Of a stretch of DNA of 64,000 bases, positions 12,514-33,401 are shown piece after piece (position 1 is the stretch's first letter; each line of letters starts with the position of its first letter). The stretch spans positions 103,459 through 167,458 of the forward strand of contig CAZNNM010000004.1 in the NCBI GenBank assembly GCA_964574415.1, written 5' to 3'. The notes beneath the pieces are model-generated. The model saw only the letters and a list, made by a program, of their open reading frames with translations, did no database searches and was not told the DNA's origin. The DNA comes from an uncultured Rickettsiales bacterium. Its GTDB lineage: Bacteria; Pseudomonadota; Alphaproteobacteria; Rickettsiales; CAZNNM01. The translations under genes were made by a program, and so were the position numbers.

Positions 12514-12515
12514 GA

Positions 12516-14571: not shown

Positions 14572-14610
14572 TGCAGTATAACCTGGTTAGACTTGGCGTG
14601 ATTTTAATAG

Positions 14611-14729: not shown

Positions 14730-14784
14730 ATATATGAGTGCCTAAAATATAGGCAAATGACGTACTTGGCAAGGCTATAAACGG

Positions 14785-15954: not shown

Positions 15955-15963
15955 GGAATTGCT

Positions 15964-17525: not shown

Positions 17526-17825
17526 ATGGCTGATACAGGAACGTTACAATCTGATCCCCTTTTCCTAGGTCTAACGCGTCCGCCAATGTTATTTGGTGTA
17601 AGCTTTAAGTTCGTGCTTTTAAACGCATTTATCACGGTTATTACCTTCATTCAAACGTCGAATTTCATGGCGTTCGTGCTGATGTTTATATTGCACGGGG
17701 TAGGGTATTTGATTTGCTTTAAAGAGCCGCTATTTATTGAACTCTATACGATTAAATTCCAAAAATGTAATAAGTGCCGCAATAAAATGTATTACGGGTA
17801 TACAAACTCGTATGATGTGTATTAA
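17526..17825 (+). CDS. virB3: Type IV secretion system protein VirB3
   Basis: DPLFLGLTRPPMLFGVSF followed by two TM helices, 99 aa, immediately upstream of virB4. Confidence 0.8.
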   Translation: MADTGTLQSDPLFLGLTRPPMLFGVSFKFVLLNAFITVITFIQTSNFMAFVLMFILHGVGYLICFKEPLFIELYTIKFQKCNKCRNKMYYGYTNSYDVY

Positions 17826-17835
17826 CGGGTTGTAA

Positions 17836-20241
17836 ATGCTGCTAAAGCTGAAAAAAACACGGGCAAGAAAGCAAGGTATTGGCGAACGGGATATGTCGGT
17901 TGCCGAATTTATTCCGTATAAATGCCATTGGAATAACCACACTATTCTTACCAAAAAGGATGAATTAATCCAGGTGATTAAAGTGGGTGGTTTCTCGTTT
18001 GAAACGGCCGATGATGAAGATGTGGACATCCGCAAAAGTATCCGTAACATTTTGTTCAAAGGGATGTCAGCGGGTACATTTGGGCTTTACTTCCACACTA
18101 TCCGCCGTCGCCAAGCGGTGTATGAGGAAGAAGATGTGGGCAATTTCCGCCGTGGCGGGTTTGCATCCTATCTGGAACAAGAGTGGCGCAAAAAACATAT
18201 TTCCCGTAAGGCGTTCGTGAATGAGCTTTATGTCAGCGTAATCCGTAAGGCGGATACAAAAGGTGCGGCGATTGTTGGGCATATGTTCAAGAAGCTGCAA
18301 GAAAAGACGGATAAAGCTAACTGGGAACTGAACATGCGCGAGGCGTATGAAGAGCTGGAGGAAATGACCGCTCGTATCATCACCACGCTGCGCGATTATA
18401 GTCCACAATTGCTGGGTACAACGGAAACGCGTTTTGGTACGCATTCCGAATTGCTACGTTTCTTGGCAACGCTGATCAATGGTGGTGCATCTGCGCCGGT
18501 GTTGGTGAGCGGGATGGATCTTTCGCATTATCTGCCATCGCAACGCCTCTATTTCGGCCATCGTGCGATTGAGATTCGTGGGCAGAAGGGTAGCCGTTAT
18601 GGCGGGATGGTAAGCGTCAAAGAATACGCGCCTTCGACCTCGGCAGGGATGCTCGATGGTTTCTTGCAATTGCCATTTGAATGCGTGATTTCGCAATCTT
18701 TCAATTTTGAAAACCGCCAAATCGCCATCGGGCAAATGCAACTGCAAAAAAACCGGATGATTCAAGCGGAAGATAAAGCGGTATCGCAAATCGTAGAGAT
18801 TGACCAAGCGCTTGATATGGCGATGAGCGGTGACATCGGTTTTGGTAAACATCACCTCACGGTGTTGTGTATTGAGAATACACCCAAGGCACTGGAAAAT
18901 GCGCTGTCTCTGGCCGTGGTAGAACTTGCCAATGGTGGTATCAACGGTATCCGCGAAAAAGTAAATATGGAGCCATGCTACTGGGCGCAATTGCCTGGTA
19001 ATAGTGATTTTGCGGCACGTAGTGCTACGATTAATACGCTCAATTTGGCGGCATTTGCATCCTTGCATAACTATCCGCCAGGCAAGCAACGTAATAACCA
19101 TTGGGGCGATGCGGTGACGGTGTTTGATACAACATCGGGCACGCCGTATTTCTTCAATTTCCATCTACGTGACGTAGGCCATACAACAATTATTGGGCCA
19201 ACCGGTGCTGGTAAAACCGTATTAATGAACTTCCTCTGTGCGCAGGCGCAGAAGTTTAACTGCCGTCTATTCTTCTTTGATAAGGATCGCGGTGCGGAGA
19301 TTTTCATCCGGTCGATTCGCGGTATTTATACGGTGATTGACCCCGGTAAAGCCTGTAACTTTAACCCATTACAGTTAGAAGATTCACCAGAAAACCGTAA
19401 CTTCCTTCTGGAGTGGATGAAGTTACTGGTAACCGTGAATGGCGAGCGTTTAAATGCGGATGAAATCGCGCTGCTGACGCAGGCGATTAATGGTAATTAT
19501 AAGCTTGATCAGGCTGACCGTCAGTTAAAGAACATTGCTCCATTCTTAGGCCTGGAAGGCCCTGGTTCATTGGCGGGACGTTTGGCGATGTGGCATAGCC
19601 ATGGTTCGCATGCGCGGATTTTTGATAACCCAACGGATAGCTTGAATTTCGATCTCTCCTCCACTTTCGGTTTTGAGATGGCGGAATTGCTGAAAGACCC
19701 TGCGGCACTTGGGCCAACACTGTCTTATCTCTTCCACCGCATCAACATCTCCCTCGACGGTACGCCAAGCATGATCGTACTTGATGAGGCGTGGGCGTTG
19801 ATTGATAATCCCGTATTCGCCCCGAAGATTAAAGACTGGCTGAAAGTATTACGTAAGCTGAATACTTTCGTGGTATTCGCGACGCAATCGGTAGAAGATG
19901 CGAGTAAGAGTGCGATTAGCGATACGCTGATTCAGCAAACCGCTACGCAAATCTTCTTGCCGAACTTGAAGGCGACGGATGTGTATCGTACAGCGTTTAT
20001 GCTCTCGCAACGTGAGCATACGCTCATTAAGACAACAGATCCTGGTAGCCGGTTCTTCCTGGTGAAACAGGGTACAGATGCTGTGATTGCGCGGGTGAAT
20101 TTAGCGGGGATGGATAATATTATCAATGTATTATCTGGACGTGCGGATACGGTATTGCTGCTAGATAAAATACGTGCAGAAGTTGGCGATGATCCAGATG
20201 ACTGGTTGCCGATTTTCTATGAACGTGTGAAGCAGTTATAG
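17836..20241 (+). CDS. virB4: Type IV secretion system ATPase VirB4
   Basis: 801 aa with Walker A GPTGAGKT, Walker B-like MIVLDEAW, and the FATQS motif typical of VirB4/CagE. Confidence 0.92.
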   Translation: MLLKLKKTRARKQGIGERDMSVAEFIPYKCHWNNHTILTKKDELIQVIKVGGFSFETADDEDVDIRKSIRNILFKGMSAGTFGLYFHTIRRRQAVYEEEDVGNFRRGGFASYLEQEWRKKHISRKAFVNELYVSVIRKADTKGAAIVGHMFKKLQEKTDKANWELNMREAYEELEEMTARIITTLRDYSPQLLGTTETRFGTHSELLRFLATLINGGASAPVLVSGMDLSHYLPSQRLYFGHRAIEIRGQKGSRYGGMVSVKEYAPSTSAGMLDGFLQLPFECVISQSFNFENRQIAIGQMQLQKNRMIQAEDKAVSQIVEIDQALDMAMSGDIGFGKHHLTVLCIENTPKALENALSLAVVELANGGINGIREKVNMEPCYWAQLPGNSDFAARSATINTLNLAAFASLHNYPPGKQRNNHWGDAVTVFDTTSGTPYFFNFHLRDVGHTTIIGPTGAGKTVLMNFLCAQAQKFNCRLFFFDKDRGAEIFIRSIRGIYTVIDPGKACNFNPLQLEDSPENRNFLLEWMKLLVTVNGERLNADEIALLTQAINGNYKLDQADRQLKNIAPFLGLEGPGSLAGRLAMWHSHGSHARIFDNPTDSLNFDLSSTFGFEMAELLKDPAALGPTLSYLFHRINISLDGTPSMIVLDEAWALIDNPVFAPKIKDWLKVLRKLNTFVVFATQSVEDASKSAISDTLIQQTATQIFLPNLKATDVYRTAFMLSQREHTLIKTTDPGSRFFLVKQGTDAVIARVNLAGMDNIINVLSGRADTVLLLDKIRAEVGDDPDDWLPIFYERVKQL

Positions 20242-20252
20242 GAGATTCCACC

Positions 20253-22961
20253 ATGCTGCGCAGTCGTTTCTTCTCCACCTTTATTCTCTCTGTGGTGTTG
20301 CTCTGTAGTTTTACTACAACAGCACGCAGCGATGACGAGTGGGAGACAGAACGCCAGCGTTTGGTGGATCAAACATTGCAGACATTACAGCAGCAGCAAA
20401 ATGCAACGGGTAGTCAGGTAGTTACCTTTGATACCCGCAATGGCTGTTTGCAAGGCACCTATGCGATAAAAGAGAATGCGGAAGAAAAGCCGTTCATATT
20501 GAAGCTAAAAAAAGGCATCAAGATGGTATGTCCACGAGATATGCTGTCGAGCTTAAATAATAATTACTGGTCTGAAGAAGCGGCCATACAAGCTAATATC
20601 ACCTGGGGTACAGACAGTACGCGTGATGATAAAATCGCGCTGGAATATGCTCCGTGTAAAAACCTGGCAATAAAAAATGCTGATGGCTCTATATCATGCG
20701 ATGCGGCAGGGGTAGAGGCGGGTGACCGATTCTTCCTGGGTAATGCGGAATGTAAAAAATACAGTGGTATTGAGTTCTGCGGTGAACGCCGTGGTAATAT
20801 GATATGTGCGTATATTCCATCGGGTGTGGGTATTATCGATATTGGCTGTATGGGTACCAAAAATACCAGCCAGTTAGCCAGCGCTAATCTGGCATGTTTT
20901 ATGCCAAAATTATGTAATGACGAATCAGCCTGGAAGGCAACGAAGAGCTTCTTCTCTGTATCAGGTACTATTGTACAATGTGTGGAAACAACGCTGAAAG
21001 CATTGTTCCTGGGTGAACATCCTTCGATGAATCCTGCATTGTCGCATGGTAATGAGGGTGATAACCGCGTTGTGTTCAATACACCAGCGGGTGGCGGGCC
21101 AGATTGCCCAGCAGTCAGCATGTTCGATAAAGTGAAGAACATGATGAAGAGCATCGCGATAGCTGCATTGATTCTGTATATCGTAGCATGGGGTTTAAAA
21201 GTCGCGACAAGCGGGCAGCTAGGTACACGTGGTGACTTTATCATGCGTGTTATTACGTTCGCGTTAGTATCATATTTTGCGATTGGAGATGGCTGGAAAG
21301 ATTACTATCCGCATCTGATGAATATCACCAACGGCCTTTCGCAGGCGATGGTGGATGCTGTGACGTTTGGCCAGCATAATGGCGAACGAACGGGCTATTG
21401 CGTCTTTGATCCGCAAACCTATCCAGCCGGCTATGAACATATGGCATTATGGGATACATTGGATTGTAAGATGCTGTCTTATATCCTATCCAATGGTGTT
21501 AATGGTGAGCAATATGCGCCGAAATTATTAGTGGTGGGGCTATTCTCTCTGCTGACCAACTTCTCAGGGATTTTGATTCTGATTTTCTGTGGTGTGCTAT
21601 TGGGTTACTTCATTGGTATGATGGTCACGGCCGTTGAGATTTATATTATGTCGATGATTGGGGTGGCGATTCTGGTATTCGTATCACCGTTATTTATCCC
21701 GATGATCTTATTCCCTTATACCAAAAAATACTTTGAAGCATGGCGTAAAGAGCTAATGTCGTTAACGCTCTATCCTGTGGTGATGATTGCGGCAATGATG
21801 ATTGTGTTGACCAGCTTTGACGTGTTCTATTATGGCGACCCACAAAAGAACGTCTTTACTGGCGAACCAAAACTGGCATTCCAAATGGGTGGTGATCAGC
21901 CGATTTGTGATACGGAAAGCTTCGGTTGCCAATTATACCGCGCTGATTTTGACCCATGGTGGGATAAAAACAAAGGTATTCCAGGTATTGGCTGGTTTAC
22001 TATCGACAACTTTGATTATAACGTAGTGCTATTAGCCTTGGTGAAAATCTGTCTGTTAGGGTATCTCTGGTTTATGTTCGTGCAGAATATCGGGGCATTC
22101 ATGGCTGACTTGTTAGGTAGCCAGCGTCTGGATCCATCCAATATTAAAGATGCGCTTTCCTCGGCGGCAGGTAATGGCAGTACGAATGCGGTTGATCGTG
22201 GCCGTAAAATCATGGGGGCATTTCCAGATAAAGTGGCTAATGCGAGTAAAACCAGTGCGAAATATGTGGTGGGCCGGATTGGCACAAAAACCGATAAGCC
22301 AGACAAGCCGGGCGGAGGTTCGGGAACAGGTACAGGTGGTACGGGCGGCTCAGGCAGTGGGGGCGGTGCAGCTCCAACTAAGGGGGGTGCTGGTACAGGT
22401 AATGCGGCGAACGCTACATCCGGTGGTAATACTGCGGGCAAGACTCCGCCTCCGGTGCCTCCATTCCCAGACCATTTGAAAGCAAAAAATAATGGTAAGG
22501 TTCCACCTCCGGTACCTCCATTCCCAGACCATTTGAAAGCAAAACGTAATAGTGCCGATACGCCAGTGCAACCGCCAAAACAAATGCCATATATTCCTGA
22601 CGATCCAATGAAAATGGCGAAAGAGAAAAAAGATAAGGCAAGAGAAGCTTTCAAGAAGCACCAAGAGGAGCGGGAAGGCGCTAAGTTTGGGCCAAGAAAT
22701 CAGAAGCCTGTGGTTCCACCAAGAGGTGATAGGCCTCAAGTAGGTGCAAAAGAGGACGATAAGGATAAGCCAAAAGATCCGTCATCTCCTCCACCATTGC
22801 CGCAAAAATCAGATGCTGTAAAGAATCAGGCGCCATTTGATAATAGCCCTGAGGCAACGGCGGCGCGTAGGGAGCGTATGGAAAAGCTGAAACATGGTTT
22901 ATCGAATGTGAAGCGTAATCCAACAGGAAATGGAACTCCGCCAAAGGATAGTGATGATTAA
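20253..22961 (+). CDS. virB6: VirB6/TrbL-family paralog 1 (RvhB6-like): Sec signal, Cys-rich N-domain, long Gly/Pro-rich C-terminal tail
   Basis: Signal-like N-terminus, polytopic TrbL-like core (AALILYIVAWGLKV...VFVSPLFIPMILFPYTKKYFEAWRKE), then a ~285-aa low-complexity tail. Confidence 0.8.
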   Translation: MLRSRFFSTFILSVVLLCSFTTTARSDDEWETERQRLVDQTLQTLQQQQNATGSQVVTFDTRNGCLQGTYAIKENAEEKPFILKLKKGIKMVCPRDMLSSLNNNYWSEEAAIQANITWGTDSTRDDKIALEYAPCKNLAIKNADGSISCDAAGVEAGDRFFLGNAECKKYSGIEFCGERRGNMICAYIPSGVGIIDIGCMGTKNTSQLASANLACFMPKLCNDESAWKATKSFFSVSGTIVQCVETTLKALFLGEHPSMNPALSHGNEGDNRVVFNTPAGGGPDCPAVSMFDKVKNMMKSIAIAALILYIVAWGLKVATSGQLGTRGDFIMRVITFALVSYFAIGDGWKDYYPHLMNITNGLSQAMVDAVTFGQHNGERTGYCVFDPQTYPAGYEHMALWDTLDCKMLSYILSNGVNGEQYAPKLLVVGLFSLLTNFSGILILIFCGVLLGYFIGMMVTAVEIYIMSMIGVAILVFVSPLFIPMILFPYTKKYFEAWRKELMSLTLYPVVMIAAMMIVLTSFDVFYYGDPQKNVFTGEPKLAFQMGGDQPICDTESFGCQLYRADFDPWWDKNKGIPGIGWFTIDNFDYNVVLLALVKICLLGYLWFMFVQNIGAFMADLLGSQRLDPSNIKDALSSAAGNGSTNAVDRGRKIMGAFPDKVANASKTSAKYVVGRIGTKTDKPDKPGGGSGTGTGGTGGSGSGGGAAPTKGGAGTGNAANATSGGNTAGKTPPPVPPFPDHLKAKNNGKVPPPVPPFPDHLKAKRNSADTPVQPPKQMPYIPDDPMKMAKEKKDKAREAFKKHQEEREGAKFGPRNQKPVVPPRGDRPQVGAKEDDKDKPKDPSSPPPLPQKSDAVKNQAPFDNSPEATAARRERMEKLKHGLSNVKRNPTGNGTPPKDSDD
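22446..22545 (+). repeat. Tandem 57-bp coding repeat (2 copies) encoding PPPVPPFPDHLKAK
   Basis: CC[GA]CCTCCGGT[GA]CCTCCATTCCCAGACCATTTGAAAGCAAAA occurs twice, 57 bp apart, in frame in the virB6 paralog 1 tail. Confidence 0.85.
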
Positions 22962-23037
22962 GTGATTGATATAAATGGAAGAAAAATTTAAAGAAACTTT
23001 AAAATTTGTGCAATGATTTACGGACTATAATAACCCT

Positions 23038-25197
23038 ATGTTACTGATACAAACCATTGGTATCCTGCTTTCTAGACTTGCTATCATTAGCAAGCTAAAA
23101 GCCTTGGGCGTGTCTGTGATATCGGCGATTCGTCATATTCTTACAGGCTTTGCGCTTATAAGCCTGGCGCTTTCAGTCGTTCCTGCCAATGCCTGGGCGG
23201 AAGCGCCAAGCGTTATGCCGGCGGTCTTCCCATCGCCATTTACAGGCAGTACGCCAACAAGTGAGATGTATACCGATTTAGGGGTATGTACAGATAAATC
23301 CTTATTGTCTATTTCTGAGATTGTCAGTGCGCTTGCTATTGCAGGGTTGCCTGGTTTGGTGATTGCGGCGATTCCCGTTGCGTTCTTAACCTTAATCAGC
23401 GTGTTCGTGATTGAGGGAACGCAAATTGCCTGCCCGCCGGGAGATCCTAATTATCCAGACCGTCCGACTTATTGGAATTCACCCGATACAAAAAATAAAA
23501 TCTTTGTGAGCTATGCGCCATGTACCTGGTTCCCTGTTGCTGTCACTGCTGAAGAGAAGGTGGAGCTTAATGAAAGTGGCTCTTTAAAATATCCAAGTGG
23601 CTATAAATGCCCTGTAGAGCGTTGGAGCGCTGATACATTCGCACTAACCTTAAACGCCGATGGTTCCGGCACTGAAAATTGGAGCCATGCTATTCCATTC
23701 GGTGTGAAGAAAGATGGCGATAAGATTTGTTTGGTGGTGAACTGGGCTATTGAGTTTAGATTAGGCTGCCAAGTATTGCCGCCATCTCCACCATTACCGC
23801 CAGTGCGCCTGCCATGCTTTATGCCGCAAGTATGTAGTGACAGGGCCGCCGTCTCAGAAAGTCAGTATCTCTTCTCCATTACAGGGAACGTAGTGCAATG
23901 TATTGAAGGTGCAGTGAATGCGATTTTGATTGATAGCCGTGTTTCTGGTGCTGATAGAAACTGCCCAGTCACCTCGCTTAGCCAAAACTTCCAGAATGTT
24001 ATGCAGAATACGGTAACGGCTGCATTGATACTCTATATCATGTTCTGGGGTATGAAGATCAGCTTCGGCCAAGGAAGCTTTATTGATTCCCGTGGAGAGA
24101 TATTTAAGAAGCTCATGGTATTTATTCTGGTGGGTTATTTTGCCGTAGGCGATGGTTGGGTGGCCTATTTACCGATGCTCAAAACCATTGGTAATGAGCT
24201 TGCCACAACGGTTCTATCCTCCAGCACGCAAAATTACTGTAACTTCCCAGCTAATGGTCTGCAATATAGTGATAACTATAAAACCATGCAGTTATGGGAT
24301 ACGCTGGATTGTAAGTTCTTAAGCTATATTTTCTCGGATCAAAACTATCCAAAAGCGCTGGCTGTCGGTGGCTATGCTTTCTTAGGTGGTGGTATATTGA
24401 TTCTGGTATTCGTGTTATTATTCATGATCTTCCTGCTTAATATCATGTTTATCGTGGTGGGAACCTATTTTGAATCGGTGATTGCGATTGCGTTATTGGT
24501 ATTCCTCTCTCCTCTGTTCGTGCCAGCTGCATTATTCCCGCAAACCAAGAAATATTTTGATGGCTGGTTAAGCGCGATATTTGGTTATATCTTGTATCCG
24601 GTGATCTTGTTTGCCTTTGTGGCATTAATGCTTAATAGCTTTGATGCGCTTTATTATGGTGATTCAACCAGTAGCGGTAAAAACAAATGGGTGTCGTCAG
24701 AGTCAACCGCAAGCAATAACCCGAATTGTTTAGCGCCAGGTGATCCACGTAAGGGAACACAAAGAGAGACATCTATTTGCAGTAATATCGGCCCGCGTTT
24801 CCAAGAAAAATGTATGATTGATGATAGGTTATACAATACGCATAGAGAGTGTATGAGTGGCTGCGAAGGGGGTGTCTGCTTCCCAGTATGTGATGAAACA
24901 ACCTTTGGGTGCCAGTTATACCGCGTACAATTCCGTAAGGATGATAACTCCTTAGGGGGTGTGCCAATGGTGACTCTCGATGAGACCTTCCGTATGGATT
25001 ATGCGTTATTATCCTTGCTGAAGGTTGCAGGTGTGGGAATGCTGTTCTTCTTCTTCATGAGCATTCTGGGCCCTGTGGTTGCTGAATTGACGGGTAGCCA
25101 TAAGACTGACTTGTCATCCAATTCGTCCGCTAAGTTTAATAATGTTGTGGGCGGTGTGGTTGCAAAAATCCAAAAAGCGGTTTCAGGGAAAGGGTAG
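23038..25197 (+). CDS. virB6: VirB6/TrbL-family paralog 2 (same subclass as paralog 1, no long tail)
   Basis: Shares CFMPQVCSD...ITGNVVQCIEGAV...AALILYIMFWGMK...LVFLSPLFVPAALFPQTKKYFDGW with paralog 1. Confidence 0.8.
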   Translation: MLLIQTIGILLSRLAIISKLKALGVSVISAIRHILTGFALISLALSVVPANAWAEAPSVMPAVFPSPFTGSTPTSEMYTDLGVCTDKSLLSISEIVSALAIAGLPGLVIAAIPVAFLTLISVFVIEGTQIACPPGDPNYPDRPTYWNSPDTKNKIFVSYAPCTWFPVAVTAEEKVELNESGSLKYPSGYKCPVERWSADTFALTLNADGSGTENWSHAIPFGVKKDGDKICLVVNWAIEFRLGCQVLPPSPPLPPVRLPCFMPQVCSDRAAVSESQYLFSITGNVVQCIEGAVNAILIDSRVSGADRNCPVTSLSQNFQNVMQNTVTAALILYIMFWGMKISFGQGSFIDSRGEIFKKLMVFILVGYFAVGDGWVAYLPMLKTIGNELATTVLSSSTQNYCNFPANGLQYSDNYKTMQLWDTLDCKFLSYIFSDQNYPKALAVGGYAFLGGGILILVFVLLFMIFLLNIMFIVVGTYFESVIAIALLVFLSPLFVPAALFPQTKKYFDGWLSAIFGYILYPVILFAFVALMLNSFDALYYGDSTSSGKNKWVSSESTASNNPNCLAPGDPRKGTQRETSICSNIGPRFQEKCMIDDRLYNTHRECMSGCEGGVCFPVCDETTFGCQLYRVQFRKDDNSLGGVPMVTLDETFRMDYALLSLLKVAGVGMLFFFFMSILGPVVAELTGSHKTDLSSNSSAKFNNVVGGVVAKIQKAVSGKG

Positions 25198-25202
25198 ATA
25201 GC

Positions 25203-27869
25203 GTGAGAAGAGTCTTACCATCGTTGCGTTCTTCTCTCCTGGCTCTCGTAGCAATAGGATTCCTATCCGCCTGCGGTCAAAGCCCGTGGGGGCCGCAATG
25301 CGTATTGCCTGCGGATGTGGCAACGGGTGGCGGTGGTTATGAATATATGGCCACCACAGAAGGCTGGGTGAATACCGGTATTTCTGTAATGAAGGATGAT
25401 ATGTTGGATGGGAAGGCTGTCGGCAAAATGCTGCTTTGCCCTGCAACAGGTTCTGCTACATCGATAGCAGTAGATTCACGGAATGAAAACTGGACGCCTG
25501 CTAATCTAAGCGTGCAACAGGGTGATACTTTATATCTGACGATTGGGGAACCAAATGCGGCTGATGGACCTGCTGGAAATAAATGGACACAGATAAATGA
25601 TGGGCCTGAGGCGTGGGATCCTATTAAGAAAATCGTTGGGAATGATGTATGCAGTGCAACAAATCTTGAGCCGTGCTGGAATATTTATGGTGATAATATC
25701 CGTGCGGGTGGTCGTGGTTTAGAGGTTCGGTTCGGAGGTGGGCAAACGCGTGCTGTTAATGAACCAAACGTAAGATTTAATGGTAATGTCGCCCTTGAGA
25801 ATGTGCCTGCGGGGAATGTAGAGTTGCGGGTTTATGATGCCCCTGGTTCTTATGGTGATAATCATGGTGGCTTTACGGTATCGGTAGAAAAAGTAAGCTG
25901 TAAACGCAAAGATGGCCAGAATTTGAGTATGCGTATCGTGCAAGCAGGTCAGAATGTTGCGGATGCAACAATTCAGAGACCCTTGTCGCCTGCATTCTCA
26001 TTATACCAAGTGCCGGTGGATGGTACGATTTGGTTGAAACTATCCGATACCAATGCGGATGGTGGCGATGGCATTTATAATAACAATACAGGTTCTTATA
26101 CGGTATCATTCACCAGTAAGATCCCGGATGATAGCCCAAAAACAACGGTTGTGAGTAAAGCGCTTAATACGGTCATCGTATTCCTGCAAGAAACCTTGCA
26201 AACAACCCAGCGCCTCTTCTTCACAGGGTTGTTGGGCGGTGATTTTGGTACGGCATTACGCGCGGCGTTAGTGCTATATATTATTTTCTATGCCATTGCC
26301 TTTACCTTTGGGATGATCCAATCACCACAAATTGATTTTATCAAACGTTTGGTGAAATTTGCCATCGTTGTGCAATTGCTCAATCCGAACATGGGTTGGA
26401 CATTCTTTAATGACCATTTATTCGTCGTCTTTAACCAAGGGCCGGCATGGTTGATTCATGTGTTTAATAACCTGGAGACGGGTACTATTCCGCCATTTAA
26501 TCCAAGTGATGGAATTAATTGGACATTCTTGGATAAGACGGTAGGGCAATTTATATCGCAATCCTTCTGGATTAAAATAAGCTCGCTGATTTTCTCTGGG
26601 CCTTTGGGGATTGTATATTTCTTTGGGCTTGTGATAGGGGCGGTAGTCTTTACCAAGGCGGTGCTGCATGCGATTTTGATTTATGTGATGTCATTACTCA
26701 CTATGACATTATTGATCGCGATTGCACCGTTATTCATTGCCTTTAGCTTGTTTAAACTGACGGAATCGCTGTTTGAATCCTGGTTGAAGACCTGCGTGGA
26801 ATATTTCTTACGCCCTGTATTTGCGTTTGCTGTACTCACCATCTTCAACTTCATTATGATTGCGTTGTTGATGCGTATCTTAAGTTTTGGCGCATGTTGG
26901 AAATGTATCCTATCCTTTGACTTGGGGATTTCGATTGTACCGAAGCTTTGCGTATTATATTTCTGGCAGCCAGAAGGTTATGATTCCTTATCGCCATTAC
27001 CAGGGGTGTATTTACCGATCAGCCTCTTTGAATTGTTGACCTATCTGGTAGTAGCGTTCTTAACAACGACGATGATCCGCTTCTCTGAAGCGCAAGTATC
27101 CGCTATTGCAGGTTCAACGCGTGGCTTTAGCCTAAGCGCCAAAGCTAAAGGCTTGGCAGATGATATGAAGAAACCGTTCTCAATGGATAAAGCTAGTGTA
27201 AAAGAGCGTAAAGATGCTGCAGATAAGAAAAAATCCCGTAAAGGTGGTTCAGGAGGTTCGGACGATAGTGGCTCTGATGGCAAAGGCGGTAGCGGTTCGG
27301 GTGGTTCGGGCGGTTCAGGAACTGGCGGAGGAGCTGGTGGCGGTGGTGGAGGTTCCGGCAGCGGTGGCTCAGGCGGTTCTGGTTCTGGCACGGGTGCAAC
27401 GGGTACTGGCGGCAGTGGTGCGGCTCCAGGTAATGCGAATAATGCTAAAGGTTCCCCACCTCCATTACCTCCAAAACCAGCGCATATGCGTTCGGCTCCG
27501 ATAAAACCAGGGGCTAAGCCTGGCCAGAAGAAGAATGACAATAAGCCTGGCCAAGGGAATGATGATAATAAACCTGGCATGAAGACAGATGTAAGCGGTA
27601 ATGGCGTGAAAGTAGTGAAGGGGCCAGAGGGCGTGAAGCCTGAGGCTAAAGTGGAAGTGAAACGCCCAACCGCCTTTGCTATACCAAAACCAGGTACTAG
27701 CACTAGCGGCGGCAGCGGTGATGCAAAGCAAAAACCGGTGGTTCCACCAAAACCAGCCAGTTTGACTAACCGTTCTCAATCGCCGGCGACAGATAATAAA
27801 GGTACTGGAGATGGTAAGCCTAAATCACCGCCTCCGGTTCCACCAAGACCTAACAAGCCAAGGAACTAA
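25203..27869 (+). CDS. virB6: VirB6/TrbL-family paralog 3: lipoprotein signal, ~330-aa N-domain, Gly/Pro-rich C-terminal tail (GTG start)
   Basis: Lipobox LSAC. Core LVLYIIFYAIAFTFGM...IAPLFIAFSLFKLTESLFESWLK. Tail with (GGS/GSG)n and PPPLPPKP / PPPVPPRP. Confidence 0.8.
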   Translation: MRRVLPSLRSSLLALVAIGFLSACGQSPWGPQCVLPADVATGGGGYEYMATTEGWVNTGISVMKDDMLDGKAVGKMLLCPATGSATSIAVDSRNENWTPANLSVQQGDTLYLTIGEPNAADGPAGNKWTQINDGPEAWDPIKKIVGNDVCSATNLEPCWNIYGDNIRAGGRGLEVRFGGGQTRAVNEPNVRFNGNVALENVPAGNVELRVYDAPGSYGDNHGGFTVSVEKVSCKRKDGQNLSMRIVQAGQNVADATIQRPLSPAFSLYQVPVDGTIWLKLSDTNADGGDGIYNNNTGSYTVSFTSKIPDDSPKTTVVSKALNTVIVFLQETLQTTQRLFFTGLLGGDFGTALRAALVLYIIFYAIAFTFGMIQSPQIDFIKRLVKFAIVVQLLNPNMGWTFFNDHLFVVFNQGPAWLIHVFNNLETGTIPPFNPSDGINWTFLDKTVGQFISQSFWIKISSLIFSGPLGIVYFFGLVIGAVVFTKAVLHAILIYVMSLLTMTLLIAIAPLFIAFSLFKLTESLFESWLKTCVEYFLRPVFAFAVLTIFNFIMIALLMRILSFGACWKCILSFDLGISIVPKLCVLYFWQPEGYDSLSPLPGVYLPISLFELLTYLVVAFLTTTMIRFSEAQVSAIAGSTRGFSLSAKAKGLADDMKKPFSMDKASVKERKDAADKKKSRKGGSGGSDDSGSDGKGGSGSGGSGGSGTGGGAGGGGGGSGSGGSGGSGSGTGATGTGGSGAAPGNANNAKGSPPPLPPKPAHMRSAPIKPGAKPGQKKNDNKPGQGNDDNKPGMKTDVSGNGVKVVKGPEGVKPEAKVEVKRPTAFAIPKPGTSTSGGSGDAKQKPVVPPKPASLTNRSQSPATDNKGTGDGKPKSPPPVPPRPNKPRN

Positions 27870-27903
27870 CAGGGATTAGGATAGACGACAGAATATAAGG
27901 TTT

Positions 27904-30057
27904 ATGATGAGTTTGAGAGTATTAAAAACATTATTCTTGCTGGGACTGGTAACGCTAAGCGTTTCGGCCTGCGATCTCATCAAACCTAACCCTGAGTGTG
28001 TGGCATCTGATGAGATGGGGGATGTAGTAGGTAGCCGTAAAGAAATTCCATCCTCTTCAGCGGGCTGGAAACCTACGAATGTCCGTGTCACCAATGAGGG
28101 CCCGCTTGTAGTAGAAATCAATAGCGGTACGCTTAATCTTTGCGGCGTTGCAAGCAGTGATGTGAGCGTGATGGCGAGTAAGGATATAACGAATCCATTT
28201 AACTATATGTTCTTTCCTTCAGGGCAAACAACGCCGATTGCTATTGGGCCTTATGTTAGCCCGAATGATATTATTACGATTGAAATTCCAGACCCAGCAC
28301 CACGGCCTACTTATAACCTTTGGGAATATCAAACATCGTCCAACGTGAATATGGTCGCTACGGCGGGTATTCCGCCAAATGCGGAAACATTTTGCACGGG
28401 ATCAGCTAGTGGATGCTGGTTTAAAAACGGGGCAGGTTTACGGATTGGGGTGGCACAATATGGTGGATTCTCTCCATTTGCAGGGATTCCGATATTTTCA
28501 TTCTTAGGTGACTCTGTTAAAGAATCCATTGTGAATTCGAGCTTCCAGCCATTAACAAGTACGACATCCTTTACAGGGTTCTCTGGCCTTTCCACCGCGC
28601 CATTGCGTGTGCCGAGTACATTCTCTCCTGGTTTCCTCGCTATCAGCGTAATGGACGCCGATGGAAATGCTATGAATAACTACGGTGGCTACGCCATGAA
28701 AGTAACCCGTTATGGCTGTCCGAAGAATGACGGTGAAGCATTATATGCCACCATCCAACCATCCGGCCAATCGCCATCCGGTGATCCGAGTGATATGAAA
28801 GAGATGAAGGGTGGCTATGATGGTGGCGCTTGGGGAACGGGTAATCTGTGGCTGAAAATTAAAGATGTTGATAGTGATTTGGGGAATAACGTCGGTAGTT
28901 ATAACGTACAGATTAAAACAACCTATGAGGATTTATTCTCAACCTCTTATTATCTCAATATTATCATCAAGAATATTAAACACACGCTCGAAAAAGCGCA
29001 GATGGCGATTTATCAATCCATCGTGAATACGGACTTTGCCAATGTCATCCATATAATGATATTATTATATATCATTATCTATGGTATCATGTTCACCTTA
29101 GGTATGGTTGAAGATAAGCAGGCGGATTTCATACGCCGCGTGGTCAAAATTGCCATTATCAACCAACTCACCATGCCGGGTAGCTTTGATTTCTTCAATG
29201 ATCATCTTTTGGTACTTTTTACATACGGACGGGATTATCTTATCCATGTCATGAGCAATGCGCATAGGGATATTATTCCACCTTGGACACCTGAATCAGA
29301 GATTGATTTCGGCTTTATTGACGATACGATCGGTATATTCTTCCGTGGTACAACCTGGATTAAGATACTTGCACTATTAGTGGGTGCGCCATTTGGATTT
29401 ATTTATGTGATCATCATCTTCTTGGGAATGTATCTCTTCCTCAAGGCGGTGATTGGGGCGTTGATTATTTATCTCTTGGCGTTGATTGCAGTAACATTAT
29501 TGATTGCGCTTGCGCCTCTATTCATCAGCTTTGCGCTCTTCCCACGCACCAGGAACTTGTTTGATAACTGGATTAGAGAACTGTTTAGCTATGCGTTACA
29601 GCCGGTCATGGTGTTTGCGGCTCTGGCGTTGTTCCATTATATTATGGTGGCCACGATTGAGCGTTTGTTCTCCTTCTCAGCATGTTGGGATTGCGTGGCG
29701 CCGAAGATTCCGATTATTCCAGGCGTATTGGAATTATGCTGGTTTGCCTTCTATACACCACGCAGCACATCGGCGGATGGCGGTTATGATCTCTTCCCAA
29801 TCAGCTTCCTTGAAGTATTGATCTTCTTGCTGGTGGCATATAGTGCTGGTAAGTTCATTGAATTCGCACAAACCTTGGCGAAAGTGCTGGTGGGTAGTAA
29901 TGGTACGCAAAGCTTAGGTGCTACGGCCGCAGGTATTCAGCATAAAGCAGGTCAGAATCTGAAAGGTGCGGTTGGTCGCGATAAGAAGAGCCAGGCACGC
30001 CATAAGCAAGCGGTCAGTAAAGCTCGGGCTGCTAAGAAGAGAGATGGGGCAAAATAA
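27904..30057 (+). CDS. virB6: VirB6/TrbL-family paralog 4: lipoprotein signal, N-domain homologous to paralog 3, short basic tail
   Basis: Lipobox VSAC. Core ILLYIIIYGIMFTLGM...LAPLFISFALFPRTRNLFDNWIRE. N-domain motif NNYGGYAMKV..GC aligns with paralog 3. Confidence 0.8.
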   Translation: MMSLRVLKTLFLLGLVTLSVSACDLIKPNPECVASDEMGDVVGSRKEIPSSSAGWKPTNVRVTNEGPLVVEINSGTLNLCGVASSDVSVMASKDITNPFNYMFFPSGQTTPIAIGPYVSPNDIITIEIPDPAPRPTYNLWEYQTSSNVNMVATAGIPPNAETFCTGSASGCWFKNGAGLRIGVAQYGGFSPFAGIPIFSFLGDSVKESIVNSSFQPLTSTTSFTGFSGLSTAPLRVPSTFSPGFLAISVMDADGNAMNNYGGYAMKVTRYGCPKNDGEALYATIQPSGQSPSGDPSDMKEMKGGYDGGAWGTGNLWLKIKDVDSDLGNNVGSYNVQIKTTYEDLFSTSYYLNIIIKNIKHTLEKAQMAIYQSIVNTDFANVIHIMILLYIIIYGIMFTLGMVEDKQADFIRRVVKIAIINQLTMPGSFDFFNDHLLVLFTYGRDYLIHVMSNAHRDIIPPWTPESEIDFGFIDDTIGIFFRGTTWIKILALLVGAPFGFIYVIIIFLGMYLFLKAVIGALIIYLLALIAVTLLIALAPLFISFALFPRTRNLFDNWIRELFSYALQPVMVFAALALFHYIMVATIERLFSFSACWDCVAPKIPIIPGVLELCWFAFYTPRSTSADGGYDLFPISFLEVLIFLLVAYSAGKFIEFAQTLAKVLVGSNGTQSLGATAAGIQHKAGQNLKGAVGRDKKSQARHKQAVSKARAAKKRDGAK

Positions 30058-33000
30058 TGCGCTATAATATCTTAAAACCTCTTTCGATTGCATTCCTGCT
30101 CTTGGCGCTTACAGCGTGCGAGCAGTCCAAACCGTGTATTGATGCGGACGATTTTGGTTTGCCAAAAATCAATCTGAATGCTGCTGGGAAAAATATCCAA
30201 GGTGCTGAGGAGCGCCAAGTATCGGAATGGGTGGATTCTGGCTTAGTGCTTATTGACCAGAAATTGCTGTTAAGCGTTTATGGCCGCTGGTATCCATGGA
30301 CACCAGGCGGGGTGGATGCTAACCAGAATACGTCCAATAGCGGCTCAAATGAAGGTTTAACCCAGAGTGTGGTGGCCAATCACTGTACGTATGTGCCTAT
30401 GGCCAATGCGATTGATCCGTCTGATTCGTCCTGCGTACGTATCCCATCCAAAGATTGGCCATGTTGGCTGACGAGAGGTATGGGGGTTTACGGCCTAGCG
30501 CTGGAAACTCAAGCCAGCCGTGGTAATAAAGAGGGTGGATATGCCGCTATCTATAACCCGAACCGCACTATGCGCGATATGCGCCAGCCATCAGAAGGAA
30601 CGACCTTCCATTTAGGGGATAGCAGCGTTGCGGGCTTACCGCCAACAGGAACAGATCCTTATGAGCGTGCCGATGATGGCACACCGATGCGCCAGATTTA
30701 TTTTGACTCCATTTCCGATAAAGGCGGTGGGTATGATGGTGACATCAGCGCTTTAGGAAAAAATGGCGCCCGGATGTATGACCGCCTGTATTTCAAGATT
30801 CTGGATACGTTCTATGCGGATAACGCAGGTTCTATGGTAGTAAAAGTACGCCACGGTGCTGCAAACCCTGATCCAGGGCCGATTGAGACGTTGATTAAGT
30901 CGATTCAGACGATTTTGAACAATTCAGCGAAAATGGTTTATAGCTCGTTGGTAGGGCAAAATTTTGAAACGGGTGCGATTGAAAACACAGCGCCTATGAT
31001 GGCCGTGCGTGCGCTTCTGGTGTTGTATATTATGTTCTATGCAATTTATTTTGTCATGGGATTGGCAAGTGCAACAACAAAAGATTTAGTGATACGTACC
31101 TTTAAAGTAGGTGTAATTGTGGCTGTGACTTCTCCACAAAGTTTTGATTTCTTCACCAACCATCTATTCGTTTTGTTTACAGAGGGTGCGAATGAAATCA
31201 TTAATTGGATATGTAATGCTATTATCGGTACAGGGCGTAATGGGGGTGATGTTACCCGCATGGTGTTCTTTGATGATATGCTCTATAAATTCACTGCATG
31301 GGAAACCCATGCCAAGATTTGGTCATTGATCTTTGATCCAAGTGTGGATTGGGGTGGTGTGATGCATCCGCCAAAAATTGAAGCATTTGTCTATATTCCA
31401 ATTATTTACATTGCGATTTTCATGTTCTTAATCGCATTGGCAAAATGTGTACTGTTCTATTTGATCGCATTGATCGTGGTTGCCTTGCTCATTGCGGTAG
31501 CGCCGATCTTTATCGTGCTGATGTTATTTGAAAAAACCAAAGAGTTGTTTGAAGAATGGTTAAAGCAACTGATTACTTCAGCTATGCAGCCAATCATCAT
31601 CATGGCATTCATGAGCTTGCTCTATGTGGTGATCATGCAAAGCCTGTATGACACGGTAGGCTATCGTGCATGCTGGGATACATGGTGGACAGGTGAGTTC
31701 TGGAAAGAAAGCTTCATTGATATTTACCCGCAAGGTGGATTCAAGTTCTGGATGCCAAATATCCGTCCTGATGTATGGGAATATCTCTGGGTGCCTCCAT
31801 TCTATAACCAAACCGTCAATGATGTGTTGATCCAAGCAAGTTTGGAAACAAATTCAACGGATATGTTGAGCGCGTTGCAAACGTCTGCGCCGGATTTATA
31901 TAATAGCATCATGGCGCAATGCGGTGGCCGGAACTCTACCTTAATGTATGCCGTACAGGATTGCCGTTTGGTGGATTATCCATCGCTCGATCCGGATATT
32001 TATTTAGATAAATTATTGCGTGTCACGGGTGGTTCTACGGTAACGTTCTTGGATATTCTCACATTTGGTATCGTGATTTATCTGATGTTATTATTCACCG
32101 ATCATGTGCCTGCAATTGCACGTAACCTCACTGGCGGACGCCATGCTGGTAACTTTGAAGGTGCTGCTGGCGGTGCGTGGGGTGCTATTAGCTCTATTGG
32201 TGGTGGTGCGCTGGGTATCGGTGCGCGTGTCACAGGCGCAAGTAAAATTACGGCGGCTGTCAGACGTGCGAAACATCAATACCAAGATGCAGCCAATACG
32301 GGCTTTGGTATGGTCAAACCAGGCGGTGGGCCGCTTAATAAGATTAAGGATGGCATTGGTAACATCAAACCAATTAAAGCGGTTAATGATAAGCTGGATG
32401 CTGCAAGCAAGCATATTGATAAATATGCGAAGATTGGTGAGAAACGCATCGATAAAGCACGCCATGCAATGGGTGGTGCAATTGAGAAGGCGGATGGCCT
32501 CATCGGAGGCAGAGATGCACCGCTGGGTGTTGGCCCGCTTGCTCCAGTTAAGAGCGCTCTGGACACAGCCTATAACGCTGCGACCTTAACACCGCGTGCT
32601 GTGAATGCGCTGCATAATAAGATCAAAGAAAATAAAGAGAAGGAGAAGGCTGAGGAAGAAGCTAAGCGCAAGAATGGTGGCGCTGGTGCTCCTGGTACGG
32701 GCGGTACTGGCGCTTCCGGTAGTGGAGGTACTCCGGGTACTCCAGGCGGTACTGGTGCTTCCGGTAGTACAGGTACACCAGGTACTCCAAGTGGCTCGGC
32801 TACTCCAGGTACACCAGGTGCTGATAATAAAGGTAAGCCTACGCCAGATGATGTTGCACGTGATGCCGCTGTATCCAAGGCGAAGGATGATCAGCGTGAT
32901 AAAGATGATAAAGCTCGCGCTGATGCTAAGGCCAAGGATGATAAAGACAGAGACGATGCAAAAGCTAAGGATGAGAAAGATAAATCCACAGCAGATGATA

Positions 33001-33401
33001 AGGCTCGCGCTGATGCTAAGGCCAAGGATGATAAAGACAGAGACGATGCGAAAGCTAAGGATGAGAAAGATAGATCCGCAGCAGACGCTAAATCCCGTGA
33101 AGATGCTGATGCAAAAGCTAAAGCCGATGAAGATAAGGCTAAAGCAGATCGTGCGCAATCATCCTCTGGACCTGAGCTGGTGCTAGACGATCAGTTCAAA
33201 CAAGGGCAGCAAGCCCAAACGCCAGAGAAGAAAGGCTTGTCGCAACATGAGAAAGACCGACTCAGTAACGAGCTTAACTTCAAGAGGGCTGAATTGCTCA
33301 AGCTGGAACGCGATCCACTCAGTAATAGCGATCCAAGATTGCGCAGCCAGATCAATGCCTTGAAAGCAGAAATCAGCGTTATTAAGGGCCAGCTTGATTA
33401 G
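30057..33401 (+). CDS. virB6: VirB6/TrbL-family paralog 5: lipoprotein signal, largest (1114 aa), ~430-aa Gly/Thr/Pro plus Lys/Asp-rich tail
   Basis: Lipobox LTAC. Core LVLYIMFYAIYFVMGL...VAPIFIVLMLFEKTKELFEEWLKQ. TAATG overlap with paralog 4. Confidence 0.8.
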   Translation: MRYNILKPLSIAFLLLALTACEQSKPCIDADDFGLPKINLNAAGKNIQGAEERQVSEWVDSGLVLIDQKLLLSVYGRWYPWTPGGVDANQNTSNSGSNEGLTQSVVANHCTYVPMANAIDPSDSSCVRIPSKDWPCWLTRGMGVYGLALETQASRGNKEGGYAAIYNPNRTMRDMRQPSEGTTFHLGDSSVAGLPPTGTDPYERADDGTPMRQIYFDSISDKGGGYDGDISALGKNGARMYDRLYFKILDTFYADNAGSMVVKVRHGAANPDPGPIETLIKSIQTILNNSAKMVYSSLVGQNFETGAIENTAPMMAVRALLVLYIMFYAIYFVMGLASATTKDLVIRTFKVGVIVAVTSPQSFDFFTNHLFVLFTEGANEIINWICNAIIGTGRNGGDVTRMVFFDDMLYKFTAWETHAKIWSLIFDPSVDWGGVMHPPKIEAFVYIPIIYIAIFMFLIALAKCVLFYLIALIVVALLIAVAPIFIVLMLFEKTKELFEEWLKQLITSAMQPIIIMAFMSLLYVVIMQSLYDTVGYRACWDTWWTGEFWKESFIDIYPQGGFKFWMPNIRPDVWEYLWVPPFYNQTVNDVLIQASLETNSTDMLSALQTSAPDLYNSIMAQCGGRNSTLMYAVQDCRLVDYPSLDPDIYLDKLLRVTGGSTVTFLDILTFGIVIYLMLLFTDHVPAIARNLTGGRHAGNFEGAAGGAWGAISSIGGGALGIGARVTGASKITAAVRRAKHQYQDAANTGFGMVKPGGGPLNKIKDGIGNIKPIKAVNDKLDAASKHIDKYAKIGEKRIDKARHAMGGAIEKADGLIGGRDAPLGVGPLAPVKSALDTAYNAATLTPRAVNALHNKIKENKEKEKAEEEAKRKNGGAGAPGTGGTGASGSGGTPGTPGGTGASGSTGTPGTPSGSATPGTPGADNKGKPTPDDVARDAAVSKAKDDQRDKDDKARADAKAKDDKDRDDAKAKDEKDKSTADDKARADAKAKDDKDRDDAKAKDEKDRSAADAKSREDADAKAKADEDKAKADRAQSSSGPELVLDDQFKQGQQAQTPEKKGLSQHEKDRLSNELNFKRAELLKLERDPLSNSDPRLRSQINALKAEISVIKGQLD
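32907..33086 (+). repeat. Tandem 90-bp coding repeat (2 near-identical copies) encoding DKARADAKAKDDKDRDDAKAKDEKD[KR]S[TA]AD
   Basis: Copies at 32907-32996 and 32997-33086 differ at only a handful of positions. Confidence 0.9.

Follow-up and report, generated by a model that had tools for sequence, protein, structure and literature searches.

The closest described counterparts of the proteins considered here are the tandem VirB6 subunits of type IV secretion systems in Rickettsiales. The subject of this work is a pair of such subunits, and in particular their C-terminal tails, encoded in a 64,000-nucleotide (nt) stretch of DNA from an uncultured Rickettsiales bacterium (contig CAZNNM010000004.1, positions 103,459 to 167,458 of the forward strand), which is called the window throughout. 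A VirB6 protein is described as extended when at least five hydrophobic helices are combined with a large hydrophilic N- or C-proximal domain (PMC12857230). The Rickettsia proteins RvhB6a-e measure 1055/674/971/886/1154 amino acids (aa) (PMC2653234). In Anaplasma phagocytophilum, tandem virB6 genes follow virB3-virB4, and the TrbL/VirB6 core of VirB6-3 and VirB6-4 lies between large hydrophilic N- and C-regions (PMC7648143, PMC2653234); the C-terminal extensions of these two proteins are repetitive, lineage-specific and fast evolving. Trypsin reached their C-terminal repeats when the bacteria were intact, and it was proposed that these are cleaved and released into the host, so that surface exposure or release of extended-VirB6 C-termini is an already published idea and is not new here (PMC7648143). 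The role of the extended VirB6 architectures and of their multiplication is given as "not yet known" in a 2025 review (PMC12857230), and the function of extended VirB6 as "a mystery" in a 2025 Wolbachia tomography preprint.

At positions 17526-33401 (+), the window carries a compact operon of virB3, virB4 and five consecutive VirB6 paralogues, with intergenic gaps of -1 to 76 bp, and this is a Rickettsiales-type (rvh) type IV secretion locus of an uncultured relative. The paralogue sizes of 902/719/888/717/1114 aa run parallel to those of Rickettsia RvhB6a-e. All five proteins scored 61-74 bits against Pfam TrbL/VirB6 (PF04610, cut-off 25.9), a phmmer search gave a sequence match to TrwI (E = 0.0011), and Foldseek matched the model of paralogue 1 to TrwI/VirB6 of the R388 stalk (8rt9_F/7o3v_F) with a probability of 1.0 and a target TM-score (TMt) of 0.56-0.58. 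Paralogue 1 also has the seven long helices of the VirB6 fold, five of them hydrophobic (α1, α2, α5-α7), as in TrwI of R388. The VirB6 identity proposed in an earlier note on this DNA was therefore supported by Pfam, by the fold match and by the virB3-virB4 context. The named VirB6 homologues closest to the window proteins were those of Wolbachia, and VirB4 was 57-70% identical to VirB4 of Rickettsiales metagenome-assembled genomes (MAGs). The five paralogues all have an N-domain (about 290-380 aa), and paralogues 1, 3 and 5 also a long C-terminal tail (about 260-430 aa), which places these proteins within the definition of extended VirB6.

The same virB3-virB4-tandem virB6 order was found in three contigs from Logan, which were used for comparison. 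Contig L001 (SRR21902431) carries virB3, virB4 and orthologues of paralogues 1-4. Contig L035 (DRR438525) encodes a VirB4 that is 74% identical to that of the window. Contig L041 (SRR9107545) shows no difference from the window across 13,094 nt, so it represents the same strain and contributes no population variation.

Both paralogue 1 and paralogue 3 belong to the extended VirB6 (RvhB6-type) subunits and have gained a clade-specific C-terminal tail that is predicted to be intrinsically disordered. Unlike the Anaplasma tails, which run to thousands of residues, these tails are about 260-285 aa long, are not made of long tandem repeats, and carry a defined proline motif of 12-14 residues under purifying selection. 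Most tails of extended VirB6 proteins are featureless repeats; the two tails of the window offer a sharply selected short motif with a specific and well-studied candidate reader.

Layout, selection and distribution of the tail motifs

The tails of paralogues 1 and 3 follow a shared plan, in which a basic segment of moderate conservation at the core leads to a Gly-rich spacer that evolves fast and differs in length, and then to an array of three to six proline motifs (Table 1). Past the core, 282-285 aa were counted in paralogue 1, whose last hydrophobic helix ends near aa 617-620, in agreement with the approximately 285 aa given previously, and about 260 aa in paralogue 3. The Gly/Ser/Thr run of paralogue 1 contains GGGSGTGTGGTGGSGSGGG. 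The translation also confirmed that the Gly/Ser run of paralogue 3 is the longer of the two, and Tandem Repeats Finder reported 9-bp arrays in it at 27292-27316 and 27330-27353. All peptides quoted in the earlier note were present in the frame and place given there, including KPVVPPRGDRP (aa 818-828 of paralogue 1) and GSPPPLPPKP (aa 750-759 of paralogue 3). The 57-bp tandem repeat placed at 22446-22545 had been called exact, which was not the case: the units 22437-22493 and 22494-22550 were identical at 50 of 57 positions (88%), the 42 nt coding for the motif differed at two synonymous sites, and the repeat was unreported by Tandem Repeats Finder on 20000-34000. Two open reading frames (ORFs) antisense to the tails, at 22016-22654 and 27041-27703 (-; 212 and 220 aa), were rejected as genes, their poly-Pro/Glu stretches being the reverse complement of Gly-codon runs.

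When all copies were anchored on the PP[K/R/F]P core, 16 motif instances in the four tails (window and L001) shared the frame PPxΨPP[K/R/F]Px[H/S][L/M][K/R], with A or D as the x after the last proline in a narrower form. Proline at position 2 and an aliphatic residue at position 0 were each present in 15 of 16 copies, P(-1) in all 16, P(-2) in 15 and P(-4) in 14. Position -3 was occupied in every copy by Lys (7), Phe (5) or Arg (4), by which the copies are named K-, F- and R-type. His was found at -6 in 7/16 copies, with Arg or Ser in three each, while L/M(-7) and K/R(-8) each occurred in 10/16. Peptides of the 14-mer type are GPPPVPPKPAHLKG, SPPPLPPKPAHMRS and QKPVVPPKPASLTN for the K-type, SPPPVPPRPNKPRN for the R-type and TPPPVPPFPDHLKAK for the F-type. 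By this frame, the selected unit is a segment of about 12-14 residues and not a bare PxxP. A WH2-like reading of HLKAK was discarded on inspection, as prolines and not an amphipathic helix precede it.

The motif patterns are more frequent than chance would give. In 20,000 composition-preserving shuffles per tail, PPP[VL]PP and the extended motif were obtained 0 times, and the counts of PxxPx[RK] had P = 0.002-0.01. Within genuine coding frames of the window, PPxPP was present only in VirB6 paralogues 1, 2 and 3, and among the six-frame ORFs of the window and 35 related loci, 357,000 aa altogether, the extended motif had one match elsewhere, in an antisense frame. The copy of PPxPP in paralogue 2 belongs to LPPSPPLPPVR (~23779-23810, aa 247-257), which lies in the periplasmic N-domain just before a conserved CFMPxxC; it is identical in L001, and the L035 orthologue has PRPRPLPP. 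Proline motifs in this VirB6 family are therefore not limited to the tails.

Selection was assessed against L001, which provided the only close relatives among 5.8 billion proteins. The VirB4 proteins of window and L001 are 96.5% identical, and synonymous sites are saturated (proportion of synonymous sites changed, pS, 0.52-0.66; synonymous divergence, dS, 0.9-1.6), which makes amino-acid conservation between the two informative. For whole tails, the proportion of nonsynonymous sites changed (pN) was 0.26-0.33, compared to 0.075-0.126 for the cores, and the rate was very uneven along the tails. Both PPPVPPFPDHLKAK copies of paralogue 1 were identical to L001 at 28/28 aa, with 16 synonymous and 0 nonsynonymous changes. 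The motif blocks of paralogue 3 (K/R) had a pN of 0.11-0.18, whereas the Gly spacers and inter-motif linkers reached 0.35-0.49 and contained indels of 19-41 residues. Motif-block pN was thus 3- to 5-fold under linker pN. By a rough binomial estimate, 0 changes at 63 nonsynonymous sites correspond to P ~2e-14 at the linker rate and ~0.007 at the VirB6-core rate (0.075).

By these rates, the motifs are short linear motifs under purifying selection in a drifting scaffold. The copies in paralogue 1 run F-F in the window and F-K-F in L001, the extra one being PPPVPPKPAHLKG, and one F-type copy in paralogue 3 of L001, PPTPPPFPDRLKAK, is without a counterpart in the window; such a difference in copy number between species would fit evolving motif arrays. 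The view that the motifs are selected rather than products of low-complexity drift thus held in one close orthologue, and drift applied to the Gly spacers only. Outside the repeats, the best-conserved block of the tail of paralogue 1 is GAKFGPRNQKPVVPPRGDRPQVG, whose class II site PVVPPR reads PVVPQR in L001, by which the fit to PxxPx[RK] is retained. The same block contains RGD at 22722-22730 (aa 824-826), likewise retained in L001, which may be a matter of chance. CagL, a VirB5-like protein of the Cag secretion system of H. pylori, binds integrin via RGD.

The tails were predicted to be disordered extensions. In AlphaFold models built with about 30 homologues, the cores were confident and helical, with a predicted local distance difference test (pLDDT) of 70-87 in paralogue 1 (helices 286-320, 326-343, 347-372, 397-411, 437-476, 491-527 and 589-620) and 70-91 in paralogue 3. 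Most of both tails had a pLDDT below 50: aa 625-902 of paralogue 1, except for two short helices at 785-808 and 866-882, and all of aa 675-888 of paralogue 3, with values of 26-37 and no secondary structure. The class II sites lie in these disordered regions (pLDDT <50, no secondary structure over the motifs).

It was evident that the motifs are confined to two genomes, the window and L001. A VirB4 genome scan yielded 33 loci with a VirB4 identity of at most 70%, and the approximately 50 VirB6 homologues beside virB4 in these loci had Gly/Ser-rich basic tails without PPxPP or PxxPx[RK]. Approximately 45 more VirB6 homologues from databases, mostly of Wolbachia, contained no motifs, and a metagenome scan with the paralogue 1 alignment gave four loci with only 23-27% identity. 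The part of the paralogue 1 tail after the spacer had no match at E up to 10 in a word-indexed database search. In an exhaustive HMMER search with the whole paralogue 1 tail against 1.84 billion representatives, only the L001 orthologue was recovered and no origin was traced; full-length searches likewise returned only L001 proteins as close matches. In L035, the paralogue 1 orthologue (6985-8814, 609 aa) stops directly after the last core helix, and the paralogue 3 orthologue has a Gly-rich tail only. The whole tail of paralogue 1 was hence gained or lost on a short evolutionary scale. The VirB6 cores of window and L035 were 33-38% identical and much more diverged than VirB4.

Between the two window tails, BLASTP without composition correction gave one collinear alignment comprising the Gly run, PPP[VL]PP[FK]PxH, QKPVVPP[RK] and SPPP[LV]P. 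The statement that the tails do not align outside QKPVVPP[RK] was consequently too strong, and of the argument built on it, that recurrence of this motif is a sign of selection, the selection part stood, whereas the sharing is explained better by homologous collinear tails than by convergence. Recent gene conversion was rejected, since the longest identical DNA word was 13 nt and shared motif codons differed at synonymous sites. Because the tails are collinear and share no DNA word longer than 13 nt, the data suggest that the tail was copied from one paralogue to the other before the window/L001 split.

Candidate readers of the motifs and rival explanations

Four PxxPx[KR] sites are present in each window tail. 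As claimed before, PPLPPK, PVVPPR and PPVPPR fit the class II SH3-ligand pattern PxxPx[RK]; PVVPPK does so too, and the fit of these sites is retained in L001. The copies were further compared with ligands of Abp1/cortactin-type ("class VIII") SH3 domains, which combine a class II PxxP core with a basic residue at -3, Pro at -4 and a hydrophobic residue at -7, often have His or an aromatic residue at -6 and Lys at -8, and are arranged in tandem in disordered regions; the window motifs resemble them in these points. ArkA, the ligand of the yeast Abp1p SH3 domain from Ark1p, is KPTPPPKPSHLK (PMC8634643); it binds through a class II PxxPx+ segment and a C-terminal segment on a second surface (PMC7514057), with hot spots at P(2), K(-3) and L(-7) (PMC3520974). 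The consensus for cortactin SH3 is +PPΨPxKPxWL (bioRxiv 10.1101/2022.04.06.487297), and the Abp1 SH3 domain of Dictyostelium binds tandem PxxPx(0-2)RP motifs of PakB, which also occur in a myosin-I kinase of Acanthamoeba (PMC3708727).

The K/R copies PPLPPKPAHM, PVVPPKPASL and PPVPPRP of the window and PPVPPKPAHLK of L001 satisfied these consensus patterns. The L001 peptide PPPVPPKPAHLK was like ArkA at 8 of 12 positions, including all three hot spots. P(2), K/R(-3), P(-4) and L(-7) occurred together in the paralogue 3 copies 752-766 and 843-857 and in three L001 copies, while the C-terminal copies had R(-3)P(-4) without L(-7). The basic residue on the N-terminal side (+3) was Lys in only 3/16 copies (QKPVVPP type), the others having Pro. 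Taken over its length, the motif appears to be a closer match to the extended Abp1/cortactin-type ligand than to the generic class II one. Unlike these ligands, which belong to eukaryotic cytosolic proteins, the window motifs are situated on a bacterial inner-membrane channel subunit.

We tentatively favour the reading, quite possible but short of likely, that the motifs are multivalent docking sites for proline-helix-binding domains of a eukaryotic host, with the tail exposed or released. The K/R copies would be read by Abp1/cortactin-type SH3 domains that organise cortical actin, and several copies per tail, multiplied by up to five VirB6 subunits per machine, would allow multivalent capture. 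For host contact, the tail would have to pass out of the periplasmic VirB6 stalk by way of the outer-membrane channel, as trypsin shaving suggests for Anaplasma VirB6-3/-4, or else be clipped off and then translocated. SH3 binding, a eukaryotic partner and exposure or release of the tail are what we infer here; the conserved motifs suggest, short of proof, that the channel itself contacts the host. In a bolder form, which we consider unlikely, the VirB6 proteins would be "cis-effectors", whose tails are threaded or clipped through their own channel so that an SH3-docking array tethers the machine to the cortical actin/endocytic machinery of the host.

The membrane side of the tails is central to these routes. 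The classical five-helix topology is supported by sequence features, namely an N-terminal signal peptide or a lipobox, loops rich in Cys on the outside and a KK/RK loop on the inside, and the A. tumefaciens VirB6 topology, as cited in PMC7648143, puts the C-terminal part in the cytoplasm. The assembled R388 system differs from this: its VirB6 has just two helices, α1 and α2, in the membrane, its periplasmic stalk is made by the hydrophobic α5-α7, and no structure was resolved for the last 70 residues (PMC9259494). Topology prediction, previously proposed as a check, was for this reason set aside as a decisive test: helices α5-α7 are predicted as membrane helices and lie outside the membrane in R388.

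Several points weigh against a host reader. By the classical topology (α1, α2, α5, α6, α7), the N-terminus is periplasmic and the tail cytoplasmic. The next relative, L035, is without motif tails, from which it follows that the tail is young and dispensable for the machine. Five of the 16 copies, including both of paralogue 1, have Phe at -3; these F-type copies are the best conserved and are not canonical SH3 ligands, PPPVPPFPDHLKAK failing PxxPx[RK] and the upstream Lys that would give a class I fit not being conserved. PxxP-type patterns carry little information, and Lys/Pro-rich segments are also found in bacterial envelope spacers. The evidence for selection comes from one species pair. 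Finally, host association is undocumented for this bacterium, and the metabolism encoded in the window exceeds that of classical Rickettsiales.

Some of these points would suit a bacterial partner, an explanation that is possible but somewhat unlikely. The motifs would then dock VirD4, chaperones or effectors in the cytoplasm, or VirB8, VirB9, VirB10 or VirB6 N-domains in the periplasm, and would tune assembly or recruitment. The cytoplasmic tail of the classical model and the non-canonical F-type copies are in line with this, the basic segment at the core and two tail helices are conserved too, and proline-rich contacts occur inside type IV systems, for example at the VirB10 proline-rich region (PMC2653234). 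The last 25 tail residues have a net charge of +2 to +4, which also agrees with such a partner and is compatible with, without being specific to, a type IV translocation signal. On the other hand, the other VirB6 homologues examined (about 50 in the 33 loci, about 45 from databases, and L035) lack the motifs and belong to machines with the same conserved partners, neither the operon nor the window showed a domain that reads proline helices, and the K/R copies fit the eukaryotic SH3 consensus over 8-10 positions. A passive spacer, in which flexible Gly and stiff proline segments span the periplasm or hold a distance with no specific ligand, is improbable. It would accord with the Gly-rich basic tails that are common in VirB6 of related MAGs (Gly fraction 0.1-0.29), with the Lys-Pro-Gly repeats of paralogue 3, with a paralogue 5 tail resembling a long charged rod, and with the position of the R388 VirB6 C-terminal helices in the periplasmic stalk. 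A spacer would, however, constrain composition and length, whereas here both length and linker sequence drift freely, the non-proline motif positions (F/K, D/A, H, L/M, K) have stayed unchanged although synonymous sites are saturated, and relatives do without these segments.

The proposal in the earlier note that the PPP[VL]PP runs act as profilin/EVH1/WW ligands, as in actin-modulating effectors, has become highly improbable. PPPVPP and PPPLPP do resemble formin FH1-type stretches, and each window tail has one PPLP and one PPR. In an ELM-style scan of the four tails, though, neither EVH1 (FPxΦP), Homer (PPxxF), WW PPxY or GYF (PPG[WFYML]) motifs nor five or more consecutive prolines were found; the longest Pro run was 3 in the window tails and 4 in L001. 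This reading lacks specific support because none of these motifs occur and PPLP is not conserved in L001; moreover, positions that follow the prolines on the C-terminal side are conserved as well, and domains of these kinds do not read them. Neutral low-complexity drift, by which slippage and composition bias would have made functionless Pro/Gly runs, is barely credible for the motifs. The Gly spacers do behave in this manner (9-bp and 27-bp repeats, indels, pN 0.4-0.5), tails are missing in L035, and there is no tail homologue outside the clade. The unchanged nonsynonymous sites of the F-type copies, the motif-to-linker difference in pN, the shuffling results and the exclusion of recent gene conversion all argue against drift of the motifs themselves.

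Comparable proline arrays are known from secreted effectors. EspFU/TccP binds the SH3 domain of IRTKS/IRSp53. The proline-rich repeats of EspF of attaching-effacing E. coli bind the SH3 domain of SNX9, as summarised in PMC2064658. As in the window tails, arrays of short proline motifs lie in disordered repeats, and in EspF/EspFU they capture host SH3 domains multivalently and redirect actin/membrane machinery. Both are dedicated soluble type III effectors with 47-residue repeats, in contrast to the window motifs, which form part of a structural subunit of the secretion apparatus itself.

The Pro-rich region of TonB is a Lys/Pro-rich extended spacer on an inner-membrane-anchored protein. The VirB10 proline-rich tract is a similar Lys/Pro-rich extended segment on an inner-membrane-anchored protein of an envelope-spanning machine (PMC2653234). 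Such spacers are dipeptide-like repeats without conserved non-proline positions, unlike the window motifs, which fix these positions and vary in length; the (X-Pro)n pattern, with composition conserved and sequence not, was not found in the window tails. The C-terminal domain of TraG of the F plasmid and of SXT acts on the partner cell, in mating-pair functions and in entry exclusion with TraS, as described in PMC7648143. It is likewise a hydrophilic C-terminal domain on a VirB6-like protein, but it is folded, acts between bacteria and has no sequence similarity to the window tails.

A full-text literature search for VirB6 together with "proline-rich" returned no report of a selected SH3-ligand-like motif array on a VirB6 tail. 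If host SH3 domains were bound, a structural subunit of a secretion system would carry host-mimicking linear motifs, which would support the exposure/release model from Anaplasma. If the partner were bacterial, the motifs would mark a contact new to rvh systems, serving assembly or recruitment. The cis-effector reading, if true, would give a concrete function to the C-terminal extensions of Rickettsiales VirB6 and to the expansion of the paralogues. The feature itself is known from two uncultured genomes.

Feature coordinates and neighbouring genes

The features of the operon and of the two tails are collected in Table 1.

Table 1. Coordinates in the window of the operon genes and of the tail segments of VirB6 paralogues 1 and 3
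Feature	Position	Strand	Evidence or comparison
virB3, first operon gene, 99 aa	17526..17825	+	ORF; orthologue in L001, L035, L041 carries Pfam VirB3
virB4 ATPase, 801 aa	17836..20241	+	Pfam CagE_TrbE_VirB, E = 3e-53
VirB6 paralogue 1, 902 aa: signal peptide, Cys-rich periplasmic N-domain, seven-helix core aa ~286-620, C-terminal tail	20253..22961	+	Pfam TrbL E = 1.7e-16
Paralogue 1 basic segment beside core, aa 621-685	22113..22307	+	48/68 aa identical to L001, pN 0.21; low-confidence AlphaFold short helices 628-673
Paralogue 1 Gly/Ser/Thr spacer, aa 686-731, length-variable	22308..22445	+	14/27 alignable aa identical to L001, 19-residue indel, pN 0.41, pLDDT ~30
F-type motif copy 1, PPPVPPFPDHLKAK, aa 732-745	22446..22487	+	Identical in L001
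F-type motif copy 2, PPPVPPFPDHLKAK, aa 751-764	22503..22544	+	In second unit of imperfect 57-nt direct repeat
Paralogue 1 charged helix, aa 785-808	22605..22676	+	AlphaFold, block pLDDT 67-83; the one part of the tail modelled with fair confidence
Conserved block GAKFGPRNQKPVVPPRGDRPQVG, aa 809-831, with class II site PVVPPR and RGD	22677..22745	+	20/23 aa identical to L001, pN 0.077
SSPPPLPQK, aa 844-852, weakly conserved proline site	22782..22808	+	L001 NPPPPATPPK: class II fit retained, PPLP lost
VirB6 paralogue 2, 719 aa; 32-aa tail without proline motifs	23038..25197	+	Pfam TrbL/VirB6
VirB6 paralogue 3, 888 aa: lipoprotein-type signal (LSAC), beta-rich periplasmic N-domain, core, C-terminal tail	25203..27869	+	Pfam TrbL E = 2.4e-20
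Paralogue 3 Gly/Ser spacer, aa 681-751, 9-bp codon repeats	27243..27455	+	22/63 aa identical to L001, pN 0.49, pLDDT 26-32
K-type motif PPPLPPKPAHMRSAP, aa 752-766 (from PPPLPPKPAHMR); fits extended class II (Abp1/cortactin-type) ligand	27456..27500	+	11/15 aa identical to L001, pN 0.18
27-bp tandem repeat, KPGQKKNDN-type Lys/Pro/Gly units, variable linker	27515..27585	+	Tandem Repeats Finder, 2.6 copies; gap in L001 alignment, absent from orthologue
K-type motif QKPVVPPKPASLTNR, aa 843-857 (from QKPVVPPKPASL; QKPVVPPKP = 843-851)	27729..27773	+	11/14 aa identical to L001, pN 0.11
C-terminal R-type motif SPPPVPPRPNKPRN, aa 875-888 (within KSPPPVPPRPNKPRN, 874-888); fits PxxPxRP	27825..27866	+	pN 0.16; L001 ends NPPPVPPKPKKP
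VirB6 paralogue 4, 717 aa; short basic tail without proline motifs	27904..30057	+	Pfam TrbL/VirB6
VirB6 paralogue 5, 1114 aa; ~430-aa tail of other make-up	30057..33401	+	Pfam TrbL/VirB6

Differences among the paralogues were also seen in their N-terminal parts. Paralogues 3, 4 and 5 begin with the lipoprotein-type signals LSAC, VSAC and LTAC (25203-25280, 27904-27975 and 30057-30125), followed by beta-rich N-domains of 300-380 aa, whereas in paralogue 1 the signal peptide is ordinary and the N-domain is rich in Cys. A weak, sub-threshold match to a PA-IL-like lectin was obtained for paralogue 3 (E = 0.0097). In R388, a pentamer of VirB6 forms the base of the stalk and is topped by one of VirB5 (PMC9259494), and rvh systems are without VirB5 (2025 Wolbachia tomography preprint). 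By analogy, the five paralogues could possibly contribute one subunit each per stalk, with the large N-domains standing in for VirB5.

The tail of paralogue 5 (32683-33401) is built differently from those of paralogues 1 and 3. It comprises a Gly/Thr/Pro linker with 45-bp repeats (32700-32789) and no proline motifs, a 90-bp tandem repeat at 32903-33092 (2.1 copies, 93%) encoding Lys/Asp/Ala-rich units, and a terminal coiled-coil-like segment, which recalls TolA-type charged rods.

The neighbours of the operon are alphaproteobacterial, with NtrX/NtrY-type regulators, TrkA and an IspDF fusion. In the flanking parts of the window (1-16000 and 37000-64000), NtrY/NtrX, TrkA, cytochrome bd, flavohaemoglobin, MscS, aroB, trpC and MnmC were found. 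The GC content of the window is 47%, and its gene content is richer than that of the classical reduced Rickettsiales. An RTX calcium-binding repeat protein of 855 aa is encoded at 58213-60780.

Two further ORFs on the reverse strand were noted. The first, of 339 aa at 43873-44892 (-), had no Pfam match and contains three internal repeats of about 110 aa, each with a bilobed hydrophobic hairpin (…AAGLGCAASLASGAV…LAPLAL…) and with Lys-rich linkers between them, an architecture resembling the inclusion-membrane (Inc-like) proteins of intracellular bacteria. The second, of 749 aa at 34297-36546 (-), is convergent with the last virB6 gene and had no Pfam or NCBIfam match. Its product has an acidic N-terminus, the segment HGNINLENVFF, which resembles a kinase catalytic loop, and a C-terminal hydrophobic segment, and it is a possible effector-like orphan.

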